Positions 54,962 through 61,581 of a stretch of DNA of 64,000 nucleotides are shown piece after piece. The stretch's first letter is position 1. Each line of letters opens with the position of its first letter. The translations under genes and the position numbers were made by a program. Origin of the DNA: Limnothrix sp. BL-A-16 (GTDB taxonomy: Bacteria; Cyanobacteriota; Cyanobacteriia; CACIAM-69d); contig CP166615.1 in the NCBI GenBank assembly GCA_041937175.2, positions 3,552,001-3,616,000 on the forward strand. Reading direction: 5' to 3'. The notes beneath the pieces are model-generated. The model did no database searches and was not told where the DNA came from. It was given only the letters and a program-made list of their open reading frames with translations.

Positions 54962-55389
54962 GGCCAGCGTCCAGAAGCACGAGCGTAATCTCCTCTTCAA
55001 GACGGGTCACGCCGCTTCGGGATTTCCCAGGGCGATCGCCCGCCAATCGCCATTCAATTGTCATTCAATAGAAAATATTGGCGAAAATTGGCGAGAATTG
55101 GCGAAAAGATATTGGCGCGTCGGCCACAGCCCCTGAACGTTTCGCGATACTTTGATCGCAGGACTCGATCGCGCCGCTTTTCTGTTTCCCTGCCTCAAGC
55201 CGTCCCTGTAACAATACTTACCTCCAACTGGGCCGCCTAGATCCTGCCTTTTCTGTCACGATTTCAACAGAGTGCCCCGAGGAAACCGCCAGTCAGCCGC
55301 AGCAAAGTAATCACTGCTTGATCACTGTTTGATCATTGTCTAGCCCCTGTTCAATTCCTGTTCAATCGCTGTTGATTGGCCCCCTTGGC

Positions 55390-57966
55390 ATGAAACTTTC
55401 GCCCAGCAACCGTTTACTATTTGCCATTGCCCTTCGCAATTGGCTTTGGATTCTTGGGACTGTGATTCTAAGTTTCTGGAGCGGCATCTTTAACGGTGTC
55501 AGCATTGCCCTTTTGGTTCCGGGCATCCTGGCTTTTTTGGGTCGCAAAATTGACCTCGGAGCCGATGCCCCAGAACTGGTGCGCAACCTTCTTTCCACCT
55601 TTGATGCATTGCCCGAAGAGCAGCGGGGTGCTGCCATGGTGGCCACCATCGTGGGAGCCATTCTGATTAAAAACGTCCTGGCTTTTTTGAGCACTGCCGT
55701 TGGGGGGCACTTGTCCCGGGCCCTGGTCAATGACGGCACATTTCAAGGAATTCGGATGCTCCTCGGGGTGGGTTTGGATTTTTATAGCCGCACCAAAGCT
55801 GGCGATTTAATTCAACGCCTTGGCTCGGAAATGAGCGGAGCCGTGGGCACAATCAACACCGTGGTGCAAATTGTGGCCACGATGGTCACCTTGCTCACCT
55901 TCATTGGTTTATTGGTGGCCATTTCCTGGCAGCTCACGATTATTTCTAGTATTTTTGCCCTGTTGGTGGTGCTGAGTAACCAACGATTTGCCAAAAAACT
56001 CAAGGAATATGGCAAACGGGGGGTGCAGCTCAGTCGGCTTTACACCAGTCAACTTCTGGAGGCGATCGGGGGGATTCGGTTAATCAAGGCCACCAGCAGC
56101 GAGGATTTGGAATATAACCGCTTAACGGGCACGTTGCTGAAGCGGCAACGGGTGGATTTACATTCCCAAACCTTCAGCTCTTTTGTGGCTTCGGTGAATG
56201 AATTTTTAGTAGTGGCTTCGTTGCTCTCGATCGTCTGGATTGGACGATTTGTGTTTCCCGGATCCCTCGAAGCCTATGCGGCCATTCTATTAACTTACCT
56301 ATTCTTAATTTCGCGAGTTTTTGCCTTTGTCACCACCCTCGGGAAGGCGCTCAATAACTTAGCCCTTTGCTCGGCGGCCGTGGATGCCATGGTGCGTTTT
56401 TTAAGCCGCCAAGGCAAACATTTTGTGCCCGATGGGGCAGTGCCCTTTCCCGGTCTGCGGCAAGAAATTCGATTTGAAAATGTGTCCTTTGCTTACCCCA
56501 GCCGCGACAAAAGCCGGGTGCTCGATCGGGTTAATTTGCGCATTCCTCGGGGGACAACCCTGGCCCTGGTTGGTTCCTCAGGGGCCGGCAAGTCCACCCT
56601 GGCGGATTTGATGATTCGGTTTTATGACCCCACGGGCGGCCGGATCACGATCGATGGTCAGGATTTGCGCACGTTTTCCCTCCGCAGTTTGCACCAGTCC
56701 ATGGGCATCGTTAGCCAAGACACCTTTTTGTTTAACGACACGGTGCGGGCCAATATTGCCTATGGCTGCGAGGAGTTAACAGACAAGGCGGTGATGGAGG
56801 CGGCCAGGCGGGCCAATGCCTATGACTTCATCATGGATTTGCCGGAGCAGTTTGAAACCATGCTGGGCGATCGGGGGGTGCGCCTGTCTGGGGGCCAACA
56901 GCAGCGAATTGCGATCGCCCGGGCCCTGTTGCGCAACCCCGACATTTTGATTTTGGATGAGGCCACCAGCGCCCTGGATACGGTCTCGGAGCGCCAGGTG
57001 CAACAGGCCATTAACGAATTAAGCCGCGATCGCACCACGATCGTGATTGCTCACCGCCTGTCCACGGTGCAAAATGCCGACCAAATCGCCGTGCTCGATA
57101 AGGGGCAGGTGGTGGAGGTAGGAACCCATGCGGAGTTGTTGAGCAAGCGGGGTTACTATGCTCGCCTTTACGCGGTGCAGTTTTCCGAAAGCGCCACGAA
57201 AACCCCCGTCCGCTGCGAAAACGCCATGGAAAAACTGGTGATGGAGGAAACCATTTCCCAGTTGGGGGCACTGGAAGCGGAGGGGATCAAGATTGCCTTC
57301 GATCCGGGCAGTGTGATGGCTTGGGCCCTGAACCGATTGCCATCGCTCTATGCGGCCACCCAAGAGGGGGCTGCATTCCAGCGCTATGTGGCGGAAGATG
57401 TGTGGCGATCGACAGTCAGCGATCGGGTGGCGGAGGCGATCGAGCAAGTCCAGCAATCCCATTGGGAGGATGAGCGACATCCCCTGATTGAACAAATTCG
57501 GATGCGATCGGCGGTATTGGTGGAGCGGTTGTCCTATGAGGGACGGTTGCGGTTGAATGCGGTGATTGGCACGTTGGCGCTGTTGGCGGATGGGTTGGTG
57601 GAGTCGCCCCAGGAGGAATACGAGTCCCTGAAGGAGGCCTATCGAGCCACCATGCAGTTGCTGGCCACGCTGGAGTTGTTGGAGGATGCCACCGGGGGGC
57701 TGGAGTTCAAACCCCGATCGGGCAAAAAGGGCGATCGCGATGAGGCGCAAACCTCCATTTCCCGCGCGGTTTATCCACAGGTGAAACAGTTGGCGGAAAT
57801 GCTGGAGATTTTGGCCAGTGAGCTGATTGATGAATTACTGCCCGATCAGTCCATTTCCCAACAGGTCAGCCGCCAAACCGACTATCGCGCGGCCTACGAT
57901 GTGTCGATTTCGCTGCTCGATCGACTAGCGGCCATTGAAACCCGCGCCACGTCCTTAAGTGCTTAG
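55390..57966 (+). CDS. ABC exporter (HepA/MsbA-like TMD-NBD) with C-terminal ComFB-like and degenerate HisKA-like helical domains
   Basis: [25 protein letters not shown]; then NAMEKLV...ALNRLPSLY; then LSYEGRLRLNAVIG. Confidence 0.88.
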   Translation: MKLSPSNRLLFAIALRNWLWILGTVILSFWSGIFNGVSIALLVPGILAFLGRKIDLGADAPELVRNLLSTFDALPEEQRGAAMVATIVGAILIKNVLAFLSTAVGGHLSRALVNDGTFQGIRMLLGVGLDFYSRTKAGDLIQRLGSEMSGAVGTINTVVQIVATMVTLLTFIGLLVAISWQLTIISSIFALLVVLSNQRFAKKLKEYGKRGVQLSRLYTSQLLEAIGGIRLIKATSSEDLEYNRLTGTLLKRQRVDLHSQTFSSFVASVNEFLVVASLLSIVWIGRFVFPGSLEAYAAILLTYLFLISRVFAFVTTLGKALNNLALCSAAVDAMVRFLSRQGKHFVPDGAVPFPGLRQEIRFENVSFAYPSRDKSRVLDRVNLRIPRGTTLALVGSSGAGKSTLADLMIRFYDPTGGRITIDGQDLRTFSLRSLHQSMGIVSQDTFLFNDTVRANIAYGCEELTDKAVMEAARRANAYDFIMDLPEQFETMLGDRGVRLSGGQQQRIAIARALLRNPDILILDEATSALDTVSERQVQQAINELSRDRTTIVIAHRLSTVQNADQIAVLDKGQVVEVGTHAELLSKRGYYARLYAVQFSESATKTPVRCENAMEKLVMEETISQLGALEAEGIKIAFDPGSVMAWALNRLPSLYAATQEGAAFQRYVAEDVWRSTVSDRVAEAIEQVQQSHWEDERHPLIEQIRMRSAVLVERLSYEGRLRLNAVIGTLALLADGLVESPQEEYESLKEAYRATMQLLATLELLEDATGGLEFKPRSGKKGDRDEAQTSISRAVYPQVKQLAEMLEILASELIDELLPDQSISQQVSRQTDYRAAYDVSISLLDRLAAIETRATSLSA

Positions 57967-58143: not shown

Positions 58144-59109
58144 TTAGCTGAATCTGGACAAACCCGATCGCGACCACAGGCGATCGAACCGCGTTGGCCC
58201 CAAGAGGATCGTGAGGCCAATCTTGCCGCCGAGGATTGCCAAAAAGCGCCATTCTCGCCACAGGTGCGGCCCAAACCACAGGGCCAACAACAGCAACCGA
58301 GCCGATCGCCACCCACGCCCCCGATCGCGCGGCCCCGCCGTCAGGGCTTTGCAGGCTAACCCTTTGTAAAACCGCGATCGCGCCGATCGCCCCACAGCCT
58401 GAGACCTTGGCCCCGCCTTGGCCAAATGGCACTCTAACACCGCATTACAAGCCCGCTCCAGCCGCCGCAAATTGGCCGAGGACGATCGATCCGAAACCCG
58501 GTAGCGCACTTGGGCCTCGGGAATCAGCACAAATTCACCCAACCCAGCCAGGCGCAACCACAAATCCCAGTCTTCCGCCGGAATGAGTTCCGTTTGGAAG
58601 CCCCCCACCTGCTCCAGGGCCGATCGACGAATCAGGGGATTGGAGCCATTTTCAATGAAATTATTCAGCAACAGGGCGGTGAACACCTGGCCCTGATGGC
58701 GATCGCGAAAGCCCGGGTGACGCAGTTGATTGTCATCATCCACATAGTCCGTCCAACTGTAGGCCAACACAGCGGCCGGGTTGTCCGCCAAGGCAGCCAC
58801 CCGATCGGCCAAGGCCGTTGGAGTCCACCAATCATCCGCATCCAAAAAGGCAATCAGGGATCCCCGAGCCGCCGCCAAGCCGCAATTTCGGGCGATCGCC
58901 TGACCCCCGTTGGTCTGTCGCAACACCCGAATTCGCGGATCAGCCGTTTGCAGGGCAATCTCCCCCGTCTGATCCGTGGAGCCATCATCCACCACGATCG
59001 CTTCCCAGTCCGCCCAAGTCTGCGATCGCAAGGCGGCGAGGGTTTCGGGCAAAGTGGCCGCCGCGTTATAGGCCGGAATGATGACTGAAACCTTAGGGCC
59101 TGTCGTCAT
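58144..59109 (-). CDS. GT2-family glycosyltransferase
   Basis: VSVIIPAYN, VDDGSTD, ARN, FLDADD, EDWDLWLR. Confidence 0.95.
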   Translation of the reverse strand: MTTGPKVSVIIPAYNAAATLPETLAALRSQTWADWEAIVVDDGSTDQTGEIALQTADPRIRVLRQTNGGQAIARNCGLAAARGSLIAFLDADDWWTPTALADRVAALADNPAAVLAYSWTDYVDDDNQLRHPGFRDRHQGQVFTALLLNNFIENGSNPLIRRSALEQVGGFQTELIPAEDWDLWLRLAGLGEFVLIPEAQVRYRVSDRSSSANLRRLERACNAVLECHLAKAGPRSQAVGRSARSRFYKGLACKALTAGPRDRGRGWRSARLLLLALWFGPHLWREWRFLAILGGKIGLTILLGPTRFDRLWSRSGLSRFS

Positions 59110-59778: not shown

Positions 59779-59956
59779 GAGGATGTTTGAGCAGGAACTG
59801 GGGCTACTAGCAAGATACGAGTAGTCGTAGGGGCAAGGGGCTTAAGCCCCTTGTCTTCGTCGATCGAGGCAACCCGCAAGGTAACAACTTTGGCTTTAGG
59901 GCAGACCACGATCGCGCGGTTGGGGCCGTCACCATCAACGTTGTTTTGACATCCTC
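59779..59956. mobile_element. MITE family B
   Basis: GAGGATGTTTGA...TTTGACATCCTC ends; palindrome at 59834-59853; arms alignable with 50138-50412. Confidence 0.65.
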
Positions 59957-59987
59957 TCCAGTTTAAGCGGTGTCAGAGTTGCCAACC

Positions 59988-60173
59988 CTAATTGCCGCAA
60001 TTCGTACAGGTACAGTTCGCGCCGCAGGTACAGGAACCGGAACCACCACAACCACAGCCTGAAGCATAGGCAGCGGTCGGCGCGATCACGGTCAAAGCAG
60101 CAGCCACAGCACCCAAAATCTTGATCGTGCGGCGACCTTTGGACGATTGCGATGTCGAAGTCTGTTGAGTCAT
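59988..60173 (-). CDS. Exported metallothionein-like peptide (signal peptide plus 7-Cys tail)
   Basis: MTQQ...KGRRTIKILGAVAAALTVIAPTAAYA / SGCGCGGSGSCTCGANCTCTNCGN; AGGAG RBS about 9 nt upstream. Confidence 0.78.
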   Translation of the reverse strand: MTQQTSTSQSSKGRRTIKILGAVAAALTVIAPTAAYASGCGCGGSGSCTCGANCTCTNCGN

Positions 60174-60220
60174 GGGTTTGTTCTCCTGCTTGCACAAGGG
60201 CAAGTTTGACTAATAATTCA

Positions 60221-60252
60221 ACTCTATTCTCTCTAGTAAGCTATAGAGTCAA
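60221..60252 (-). promoter_or_regulatory. MerR-family (PbrR/CadR/ZntR-type) operator-promoter
   Basis: Minus strand TTGACT-CTATAGCTTACTAGAGAGAA(20 bp)-TAGAGT with CTCTA...TAGAG dyad. Confidence 0.72.
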
Positions 60253-60314
60253 GAGGCGGCGCGATCGAGTAAGACAATGGGAATGAAGCAGCCAGTTTTG
60301 ATGGAGCAGCCCCC

Positions 60315-60896
60315 GTGACTTCGGGAAATTTGACCCAACAACCCAATCACCCAACCGAGTCCGCCATTCCGCCTCACTGGGTGTTCACTCAGGTCGATCG
60401 CCCGGAACAGCCCGAGACCCAAACCCAGGATGCCGCCGCTGCCGATCATGGCCTGCGCCAGTTGGCCCTGGTGGCCGAGGATCGGGTGAAGGTGCGCCGA
60501 CAGGTCACCCTTGATGATGGGACGGTGGCTTGGTTGCAACTGGCCCGGGGCACAGTGCTGCGGCCGGGCGATCGACTGCGCACCGTCCAGGGAGACTGTT
60601 GCCGGGTGGTGGCGCAACCGGAACCGGTGCTGACGGTGCGATCGCCCGATCGACTGTCCCTGTTGCAAGCGGCCTATCATTTGGGCAACCGCCATGCGCC
60701 CCTGGAAATCACGATCGATTATTTGCGGCTCGCGCCGGATCCAACCCTGAAAGATTTGCTGGAACGACGCGGCCTCCAAGTGATTGAGGAAATCGCCCCC
60801 TTTGTGCCGGATCCGGGAGCCTATTCAACGGTCGATCGCGCCCACCATACCCACCACCATCACCACGACCACGCCAATTCCCATCACCATGAGTGA
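60315..60896 (+). CDS. ureE: Urease accessory Ni chaperone UreE
   Basis: RGTVLRPGD, AAYHLGNRHAPL, PFVPDPGAY, His-rich tail; start uncertain. Confidence 0.93.
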   Translation: MTSGNLTQQPNHPTESAIPPHWVFTQVDRPEQPETQTQDAAAADHGLRQLALVAEDRVKVRRQVTLDDGTVAWLQLARGTVLRPGDRLRTVQGDCCRVVAQPEPVLTVRSPDRLSLLQAAYHLGNRHAPLEITIDYLRLAPDPTLKDLLERRGLQVIEEIAPFVPDPGAYSTVDRAHHTHHHHHDHANSHHHE

Positions 60897-61581
60897 GCCA
60901 TTGTCCCGATCGCTTGCCCTGTTGCAATTGGCTAGCCCGGCCTTGCCCGTGGGAGCCTTTAGCTATTCCGAGGCGATCGAAACCTTGGTGGACAAGGGCC
61001 AGGTGAGATCGGCTGCCGATTTGACCGACTGGTTGCGACAGGAGTTACGGGTGGGCAGCATCCGTCTGGAAGCGGCGGCCCTGCTGAAGGCGCGACAGGC
61101 GATCGATCAGGGCAATCGGGACTCCATTCACCACTGGAATCAATGGATTTCGGCCTTGCGAGAAACGGAAGAATTGCGGTTACAAAGTTGGCAAATGGGG
61201 CGATCGTTGGTCACCTTGGCCAAGGATCTCAACCCAGCCGATACCACCTTAGTGACGCTGAATCTGCAACCAGTGAACTATGCGATCGCCTTTGCCAGTT
61301 TGGCTGCCCATTGGCAACTGAGCCACGCGGAAATGTTGACCGCCTATCTACAATCTTGGGCCAGCAATTTGGTGAGCGCTGGGGTTCGTTCCATCCCGAT
61401 CGGTCAAACCCAAGGTCAGCAAACATTACTCAATTTATGGTCTGACTTAACCGCCGCCATCACTGAAATTCAGCAACTCGCCACCGCTGATACGGATGAT
61501 GATTGGTTTGCTTGTGGTTGGGGCCTCTCGATCGCCAGCATGACCCACGAAACCCAATACAGCCGCCTCTTCAGAAGCTAG
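60889..61581 (+). CDS. ureF: Urease accessory protein UreF
   Basis: LQLASPALPVGAFSYS, QMGRSL, PIGQTQGQ, HETQYSRLFRS. Confidence 0.95.
   Translation: MSEPLSRSLALLQLASPALPVGAFSYSEAIETLVDKGQVRSAADLTDWLRQELRVGSIRLEAAALLKARQAIDQGNRDSIHHWNQWISALRETEELRLQSWQMGRSLVTLAKDLNPADTTLVTLNLQPVNYAIAFASLAAHWQLSHAEMLTAYLQSWASNLVSAGVRSIPIGQTQGQQTLLNLWSDLTAAITEIQQLATADTDDDWFACGWGLSIASMTHETQYSRLFRS

Follow-up and report, generated by a model that had tools for sequence, protein, structure and literature searches.

A putative exported metallothionein-type peptide behind a MerR-type operator in the cyanobacterium Limnothrix sp. BL-A-16

A short locus in Limnothrix sp. BL-A-16, a freshwater organism, raises the question of whether a cyanobacterium may encode a metallothionein-type peptide that is built for export and, if so, for which metal. 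The locus lies in a stretch of 64,000 nucleotides (contig CP166615.1 of assembly GCA_041937175.2, positions 3,552,001 to 3,616,000 of the forward strand), the whole of which is called the window here, and the interval 59988..60252 on its minus strand holds the open reading frame (ORF) of a 61-residue peptide together with its promoter. The explanation favoured here, with a probability of about 0.55, is that the gene encodes a metal-induced, exported peptide of metallothionein type that would hold Cu(I) in thiolates, copper being the most likely metal. The features of the locus, in window coordinates, are as follows.

60247..60252, minus strand, -35 hexamer TTGACT, the same as in Escherichia coli zntA and at all 47 cyanobacterial operator sites described below
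60229..60248, minus strand, operator dyad CTCTATAG-CTTA-CTAGAGAG, overlapping the -35 and kept in both same-genus genomes
60221..60226, minus strand, -10 hexamer TAGAGT, 20 nucleotides after the -35
60183..60187, minus strand, ribosome binding site (RBS) AGGAG, 9 nucleotides 5' of the ATG and kept in all three genomes
59988..60173, minus strand, ORF of the Cys-rich peptide precursor, 61 codons and a stop (ATG 60173-60171, TAG 59990-59988)
60063..60173, minus strand, residues 1-37, predicted export signal (a cleavable signal peptide, possibly an uncleaved signal anchor)
59991..60062, minus strand, residues 38-61, metallothionein-like tail of 24 amino acids with 7 Cys, the predicted mature part

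The peptide gene, its export signal and its tail

Comparison with its relatives shows the ORF to be a real gene under purifying selection. Relatives of the peptide were found in only two of 61 related genomes searched, both of the same genus and with 98% and 75% protein identity, which places the gene in 3/3 genomes of the genus when the source genome is counted. All 7 Cys and their spacing are retained in the three genomes, with 8 of the 17 other tail positions changed in the 75% relative and switches between TGT and TGC at the Cys codons. Against the 75% relative the Nei-Gojobori method gives a dN of 0.137 and a dS of 0.528 (dN/dS about 0.26), the 98% relative differs by 7 synonymous substitutions and 1 non-synonymous one, and an 86-amino-acid frame that overlaps the ORF is interrupted in both relatives. 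A longer form of the peptide started at TTG (71 amino acids, to 60203) is unconserved in the 75% relative and has been ruled out, therefore the ATG is taken as the start.

The search of the 61 genomes also gave weak matches, of which two were inspected, one lying inside a long tRNA-synthetase-like ORF (L002) and one antisense to a long membrane-protein ORF (L007), both rejected, the remaining weak ones being at E >= 0.006. A paralogue search found no second copy in the source genome, no family matches the peptide in Pfam or NCBIfam, both scanned also at E<=1, a word-indexed protein search returned 1 protein among 2 candidates with nothing beyond the peptide's own cluster, phmmer against 1.84 billion representatives returned that cluster alone and the ESM Atlas gave no usable match. 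These searches are weak negatives because the query is short and of low complexity.

Judged by its sequence the promoter is of MerR-type layout, with an over-long spacer of 20 nucleotides and a dyad overlapping the -35. The arms of the dyad are 8 nucleotides long, with 7 of 8 positions complementary around a centre of 4 nucleotides, the promoter core is kept in both relatives, and a promoter scan found no canonical promoter with a spacer of 16-18 nucleotides upstream of the ORF. The zntA promoter in the E. coli K-12 record, which is a ZntR site, has the same TTGACT, the same 20-nucleotide spacer and the same dyad register, with ACTCTnnAG-N4-CTnnAGAGT lying over the -35 as at the peptide gene. 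In the 75% relative some 92 additional bases (L006, about 1390-1480) separate the -10 from the RBS and make the 5' leader longer.

The N-terminus of the peptide fits a Sec-type signal for signal peptidase I, as far as composition can indicate, with an n-region (residues 1-18) of net charge +4 and a hydrophobic stretch at residues 17-36 in which hydropathy peaks over the 15 residues 17-31 (mean Kyte-Doolittle 2.23). The predicted cut falls in A-Y-A/S-G at positions -3 to +2, with small residues at -3 and -1 and a Pro at -6. The tail beyond it could possibly be released, anchored by a lipid or held at the membrane by an uncleaved signal anchor.

A first-pass annotation of the locus, made from its letters, had claimed a 61-residue ORF with an AGGAG RBS and a MerR-type promoter of its own, and a basic n-region, a hydrophobic h-region and an A-Y-A site in the peptide. 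The ORF and its RBS are borne out, as a conserved gene under purifying selection, the promoter is seen in the TTGACT, 20-nucleotide spacer, TAGAGT and dyad, which belong to a widespread cyanobacterial operator family, and the three parts of the signal stand out in the residue composition. The annotation had also proposed a comparison of homologues and synteny, holding that a lack of conserved homologues with the Cys spacing would speak against it; two same-genus homologues keep all 7 Cys in that spacing and the 75% relative keeps the ureE-ureF arrangement beside the gene.

The tail, SGCGCGGSGSCTCGANCTCTNCGN, consists of 7 Cys (29% of its 24 residues), 7 Gly, 3 Ser, 3 Thr, 3 Asn and 1 Ala, with no aromatic, His or charged residue, and the Cys are spaced C-x-C-x5-C-x-C-x3-C-x-C-x2-C. 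These are the properties by which metallothioneins are recognised operationally, that is low mass, a high Cys content in C-x-C and C-x-x-C arrangements, and absence of aromatic residues and His. When the tail was compared by phmmer with 177,635 distinct PDB sequences there were two matches at E<=10, both metallothioneins. The best, 1t2y_A (25 amino acids, E 0.031), aligns without gaps over residues 2-24 with all 7 Cys in register and shares with the tail the Gly, Ser and Asn positions that lie near the Cys; we take 1t2y to be the copper metallothionein of Neurospora crassa, of fungal family 8. The second, 1m0j_A (E 0.25), is presumably a fish metallothionein domain. The seven Cys and their spacing are thus as the first-pass annotation had described them, and its comparison with Neurospora copper metallothionein is matched by the ungapped alignment, so far as 1t2y is correctly assigned. 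Its statement that the peptide is unlike SmtA/BmtA agrees with the absence of a Pfam match at E<=1 and of His from the tail. Its interpretation of the product, as an exported metal-buffering peptide, is supported in that each element accessible to computation proved correct. The apo-peptide is expected to be disordered.

How far this arrangement of Cys extends was looked at by pattern. Back-translated, the exact spacing matches in 31 of 301 cyanobacterial genomes, where the matches that are not repeats fall in the source genus (3/3 genomes) and one other genus, and the rest look like simple repeats as judged from the matched letters alone. The frame in the other genus (genomes G027 and G087; L036 1498-1569, and L037) follows directly after a TGA without a start codon and was rejected; it has 23 codons with 8 Cys and 2 His, is kept in the two genomes and occupies the 5' end of a longer ORF that is read in a different frame. 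A stricter motif that includes the residues shared with 1t2y gave 2 records among 185,579 species genomes, one from Limnothrix redekei and one from a metagenome-assembled genome of the Oscillatoriales. A relaxed Cys pattern run on metagenomes gave no relatives among the matches listed (at least 118 stretches, 80 with DNA), almost all of which were TGC/TGT repeats. Two metagenome contigs from this work may be mentioned for themselves. On L153 (388-852, minus strand) an ORF that by eye resembles the C-terminal part of histidyl-tRNA synthetase ends in a metallothionein-like tail of 24 residues with the same Cys spacing and one further Cys, and on L162 (238-780, minus strand) a GC-rich ORF of 180 amino acids has a hydrophobic segment and then an extended Cys-rich part in which the same spacing recurs, and may be another exported Cys-rich protein.

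The operator in cyanobacteria and the candidate regulator

The metal to which the promoter may respond is indicated by the genes that stand behind the same operator elsewhere. A census with the 24-nucleotide pattern TTGACTCTNNAGNNNNCTNNAGAG in the 301 cyanobacterial genomes located 47 operator sites, spread over 39 genomes; the reversed pattern, used as a control, located 1. At exactly 20 nucleotides of spacing TAnnnT is found in 30 of the 47 sites and nAnnnT in 39. The first plausible downstream ORF was read at all 47 sites, 2 of which are palindromes counted on both strands, with the following result.

19 of 47 sites, MerR-family genes (one a fragment)
9 of 47 sites, P1B ATPases with an N-terminal M-x-C-x-x-C domain
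4 of 47 sites, small CopZ-like HMA proteins
4 of 47 sites, glutaredoxin-fused membrane proteins
1 of 47 sites, a thioredoxin-like protein
5 of 47 sites, further small peptides, of membrane or exported type, whose tails are rich in Cys or Met
2 of 47 sites, the 7-Cys peptide of the source genus
3 of 47 sites, unclear

By the families represented, the gene set behind the operator is one of copper homeostasis. Family scans covered 5 of the 9 ATPases together with the ATPase of a Nostoc plasmid, the CopZ-like and small-peptide classes having been assigned from translations, and in all 6 scanned ATPases the copper models outscore the Cd/Zn models. The Nostoc plasmid ATPase reaches 668.6 bits with TIGR01511 (cut-off 397) against 419 with TIGR01512, and alone passes the TIGR01511 cut-off because it is full-length and the other loci are partial. 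No ZntA-type pump was seen among the census genes behind the operator. On pCC7120beta of Nostoc PCC 7120 and on a plasmid of Leptolyngbya boryana the regulators stand among a P-type ATPase, HMA proteins, one cupredoxin protein and one four-helix-bundle copper-binding protein (the last two named on pCC7120beta by the annotation of the record), and the same operator precedes several of the metal genes on these plasmids.

One of the glutaredoxin fusions matches Glutaredoxin and MauE and the thioredoxin-like protein matches Thioredoxin_3. Glutaredoxin-MauE-type membrane fusions of 264-281 amino acids stand behind the operator in four genomes (L072, L074, L104 and L105). It is possible that such fusions supply thiol-redox capacity across the membrane in the copper response, and together with the thioredoxin-like protein they may bear on how thiols are kept reduced outside the cytoplasm.

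Other very small ORFs behind the operator, unrelated to the 7-Cys peptide, deserve description. On pCC7120beta (L056 6931-7309) an operator-like promoter is followed by a 102-amino-acid ORF that is missing from the annotation of the record, with a predicted signal peptide, the motif G-C-K-C-C-Q-A-M-M-N-H and no Pfam match. Genome G218 has paralogous ORFs of 57-62 amino acids behind the same operator (L091 1265-1453, minus strand, and the 57-amino-acid ORF of L099), each with a predicted signal peptide and then G-C-A-C-C-E-x-M-G-Q-M, a motif like that of the Nostoc plasmid ORF, thus they may form a small family of exported Cys/Met peptides. At three further loci (L093 1237-1398, plus strand; L094 1219-1485, minus strand; L073 1093-1464, minus strand) small ORFs behind the operator have one hydrophobic segment and a Met-rich tail of G-G-M-M-x-x-G-G-M-M type or G-M-G-C-H-A-M-M-G type, and look like membrane-tethered binders of Cu(I) or Ag(I). 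The three operator-linked Cys/Met-rich peptides that were scanned have no Pfam family.

The regulator and operator family is not itself new, as the HMRTR subfamily of MerR regulators has already been published with cyanobacterial members, sites of 21-22 base pairs and -35/-10 spacers of 19-20 base pairs (PMC5045206); what is new is the 7-Cys peptide as a target. Literature searches found no experimental study of the cyanobacterial MerR regulon behind this operator, nor any relevant mention of the operator sequence.

The source genome has one MerR-family gene by PF13411 and PF00376, outside the window at G000:C1:786409-786993 (L004 1450-2034), and this single gene, elsewhere on the chromosome, is the likely regulator of the peptide. 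The protein has 194 amino acids with a C-terminal extension of about 50 residues past the metal-binding loop, which the 137-amino-acid homologues of Nostoc and Leptolyngbya do not have. Its best PDB match is chain 4ua1 ('Regulatory protein', E 3.9e-21), which we take to be the mercury sensor MerR, with CueR next, and it keeps the Cys aligned with that of 4ua1 before the dimerisation helix as well as the last loop Cys (I-C-P-I-V-E). Compared with the HMRTR and ZntR proteins it differs in having one loop Cys against two or more, in its extension and in the distance of its gene from the presumed target. It matches, at about 50% identity, cyanobacterial plasmid genes annotated as heavy-metal-responsive regulators, and among regulators adjacent to the operator 12 share its loop type and have 44-51% identity with it, while for 6 with another type of loop the identity is 34-41%. 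The two other genomes that carry the peptide each have an orthologue, at 90% and 70% identity, and three further genomes of the family have matches of 38-40% or none, a co-occurrence that is weak evidence because there are five genomes, all related.

When one mismatch was allowed, the full operator occurred in the source genome at the peptide promoter alone, and the simplest reading of this is a circuit of one sensor and one target. A second operator-like site, TTGACTCTCTAC-TGGA-CTAGAGAA followed by TAGAGA (G000:C1:1489548-1489571; L024 4049-4072), was set aside. Its spacer is shorter, it falls within the final codons of a RuvB-like gene, and no credible gene follows it; it may have arisen by chance, be a relic or drive transcription of a small RNA.

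If these elements act together, an excess of Cu(I) or a similar soft metal in the cytosol would load the only MerR-family regulator, which, seated on the dyad of this promoter with its over-long -35/-10 spacing, would activate transcription by distorting the DNA, as happens at the zntA and copA promoters. The 61-residue precursor would be inserted with its N-terminus in and its C-terminus out through the signal sequence, probably by Sec, and would probably be cut after A-Y-A by signal peptidase I, and the 24-residue tail, now in the periplasm or thylakoid lumen, would bind several Cu(I) in a thiolate cluster and so buffer copper pumped out by P1B ATPases. In this scheme we infer the identity of the metal, the binding of MerR at this site, the export and cleavage, and the binding of metal by the tail.

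Competing explanations

Several points weigh against an exported copper-thiolate peptide. On the side of the regulator, the first loop Cys of CueR is absent from the MerR protein, as it is from the Nostoc and Leptolyngbya homologues, and a Cys stands where CueR has Ser, which marks sensors of divalent metals. The protein lies below every equivalog cut-off in NCBIfam (CueR, TIGR02044, 91.1 against 147.4 bits), with the CueR, MerR, ZntR and CadR models scoring alike on it at 82-91 bits, and no operator is found in the region upstream of its own gene. Nor is there one in the 250-300 nucleotides or so upstream of the best-scoring P1B ATPase or of the stand-alone HMA gene of the source genome, thus the link to copper rests on other genomes. 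On the side of the peptide, the gene is restricted to one genus as far as the searches reach, and the number of Cys is odd, in a compartment that is oxidising and favours disulfides. The likeness to 1t2y is a match between short sequences of low complexity, with an E of 0.031 in a small database and the peptide's own cluster alone among the 1.84 billion representatives, therefore the tail and the fungal metallothioneins are at least as likely to have converged as to share an ancestor. An Arg-Arg pair is present (G-R-R-T-I-K) and no Tat-signal family is found for the peptide at E<=1 in NCBIfam or Pfam, each of which, we assume, holds a Tat-signal model. A lipobox follows the pattern [LVI][ASTVI][GAS]C, and the lipobox-like A-S-G-C of the peptide (A-A-G-C in the relative) fits at -2, -1 and +1 and has Ala at -3, which appears atypical. 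Two metatranscriptome runs from a single study yielded RNA contigs that agree with the locus, with 0 mismatches, over 59833-60179 and 59891-60160; as these show neither strand nor start, and carry-over of DNA is possible, they give modest support for expression.

Other explanations draw on the neighbouring genes, which in the window are these.

60315..60896, plus strand, ureE, divergent from the peptide gene (NCBIfam NF009751, 152.4 bits, cut-off 144; Pfam UreE_N and UreE_C)
60784-61581, plus strand, ureF, after ureE (Pfam UreF)
58144-59109, minus strand as the peptide gene and downstream of it, GT2 gene, with polysaccharide-type models far below their cut-offs
55336-57966, plus strand, ABC exporter of 876 amino acids with a C-terminal ComFB (PF10719, E 3.8e-13), convergent with the GT2 gene

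The architecture could be the same with another metal, the sensor and the peptide both serving a divalent or soft metal such as Zn, Cd, Pb or Hg, an explanation that seems unlikely. It would agree with the layout of the promoter, which is that of the Zn/Cd/Pb-responsive zntA promoter with 21 of 33 positions identical, with the Cys at the Ser position of CueR, the best PDB match to 4ua1 and the near-equal scores of the four regulator models, and with the position of the peptide gene, which is transcribed away from ureE and ureF, genes for nickel chaperones. However, the operator elsewhere fronts copper-type ATPases and CopZ-like chaperones with no ZntA-type pump, and several of the co-regulated small peptides are Met-rich, the ligand style of periplasmic binders of Cu(I) and Ag(I). 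The best structural match, 1t2y, is moreover presumably a copper protein. It is a rather improbable suggestion that the product is instead a secreted disulfide-rich or redox peptide (a thiol buffer, a signal or an antimicrobial) whose likeness to metallothionein is one of composition. Exported Cys-rich peptides usually do become disulfide-bonded, the 1t2y match is statistically weak, and the glutaredoxin-MauE and thioredoxin-like proteins behind the operator suggest a theme of thiol redox, yet an odd number of Cys with C-x-C pairs suits metal clusters better than disulfide knots, the tail has no hydrophobic or charged residues from which to make a folded core and the promoter is of metal-sensor type.

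The abundance of Cys, Ser, Thr and Gly in the tail, as in the cores of azole peptides and lanthipeptides, has led also to consideration of a precursor of a ribosomally synthesised and post-translationally modified peptide or a glycopeptide, in which a leader would precede a core modified at Cys, Ser or Thr (for instance by GT2 glycosylation) and the neighbouring ABC exporter would carry the product out. Downstream of the peptide gene and co-directional with it is the GT2 gene, in the 75% relative its immediate neighbour, and in both genomes the exporter lies beside GT2. Very little weight is given to this explanation, as among the main ORFs scanned between 44 and 64 kb there is no cyclodehydratase, lanthionine synthetase, radical-SAM or peptidase family, the exporter has ComFB and not a C39 peptidase, and the GT2 protein is far below the cut-offs of the polysaccharide models; the N-terminus resembles a general export signal and not a leader, Pfam and NCBIfam give no precursor family match, and a MerR-type metal promoter would be unusual. 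The occurrence in one genus, the very short length and the low complexity might all be expected of a young, genus-specific ORF of little or no function that had landed behind a pre-existing MerR promoter, for which the odds seem equally slight. Purifying selection, with every Cys kept at 25% protein divergence, the conserved RBS, promoter and synteny, and the presence of the sequence in RNA libraries all go against it, and a functionless orphan is judged unlikely.

Known systems and neighbouring sequence

The peptide shares with 1t2y the spacing of its 7 Cys, a similar mature size and the lack of aromatic residues and His. The fungal product has 25 residues and is not preceded by a leader, the Neurospora metallothionein being leaderless and cytosolic, whilst the peptide has a signal-like N-terminus of 37 residues; further differences are that two Ser positions of the fungal family 8 pattern are not kept and that the host is a cyanobacterium with MerR-type control. 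SmtA is under the repressor SmtB and not a MerR-type activator. The SmtA/BmtA proteins (Metallothio_Pro) are also small Cys-rich metal binders of cyanobacteria (PMC7558416), the peptide differing in that it has no His ligand and a tail of 24 residues that is too short for the zinc-finger fold. A protein of this type in Pseudomonas, PmtA, was checked and has no signal peptide (PMC11237414).

Closer in size is MymT, described as a tiny Cys-rich peptide that copper induces, that annotation at first missed and that was predicted to bind up to 6 Cu(I) (PMC7558416), and is placed among cytoplasmic copper-sequestering proteins, some of which are under copper-sensing repressors (PMC11672702); it is like the peptide in being very small and Cys-rich, and no sequence relation was found. 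Csp1 is described as a thiolate-rich store of Cu(I) that is exported by Tat to the periplasm or internal membranes (PMC7558416). It consists of large, pre-folded four-helix bundles that form tetramers, whilst the tail of the peptide is 24 residues and unstructured. CueP is controlled by CueR, and CopM of Synechocystis is under the two-component system CopRS and not a MerR regulator. Copper-CueP is given as a major periplasmic metal complex of Salmonella, where the copper ATPases are under MerR-family sensors (PMC2919089), and CopM as a copper protein with a cleaved signal peptide that is found extracellularly as well (PMC4894872). Both are folded proteins of other families than the peptide. 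By analogy each half of the model would have a precedent, the cytosolic sensor acting on a periplasmic binder in CueP and the exported thiolate store in Csp1.

Bacterial metallothioneins are described as rare (PMC7558416, PMC11672702), and metallothioneins have been noted in cyanobacterial exoproteomes and on the cell surface of Pseudomonas, by a route given there as unknown (PMC4894872, PMC11237414). Literature searches, judged by titles and abstracts, gave no report of an exported metallothionein or of one with a signal peptide. A bolder proposal, to which we would give somewhat less than an even chance, is that the peptide is a Cu(I)-thiolate mini-peptide exported by Sec and, among metallothioneins, the first to have a genuine export signal, that it converged on the design of the fungal copper metallothioneins, and that it is one of a wider, so far unannotated class of small exported Cys- or Met-rich peptides under a copper-responsive MerR-type operator that buffer copper in the periplasm or thylakoid lumen. 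If true, it would provide a genetic basis for thiolate buffering of copper outside the cytoplasm through a metallothionein-type peptide that has its own export signal and is under a metal-sensor promoter. The wider result may matter more, as the 24-nucleotide operator appears to mark a regulon for copper, present in no fewer than 39 of the 301 cyanobacterial genomes, that includes several families of very small peptides rich in Cys or Met and of membrane or exported type, at least one of them missing from the annotation of pCC7120beta.

The start codon of ureE is 63 nucleotides from the -35 of the peptide promoter, thus the operator may also affect ureEF, although this is speculation. The divergent ureE-ureF arrangement is kept in the 75% relative. 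Downstream of the ORF the terminator scan reported no terminator, and about 135 nucleotides past the stop there is the following feature.

59834..59853, no strand, perfect palindrome of 20 base pairs, CAAGGGGCTTAAGCCCCTTG, within a dispersed repeat at 59813-59869

The palindrome is a possible transcript end. RNA contigs from a second study match a diverged strain, and those of runs X11 to X13 leave 60212-60325 uncovered and cannot show where the transcript starts. At 59820-59867 the depth of RNA contigs spikes to as much as 571, with many loose ends running into unrelated sequence, and in a related strain (runs X13 and X14) 82 other letters replace 59781-59900.

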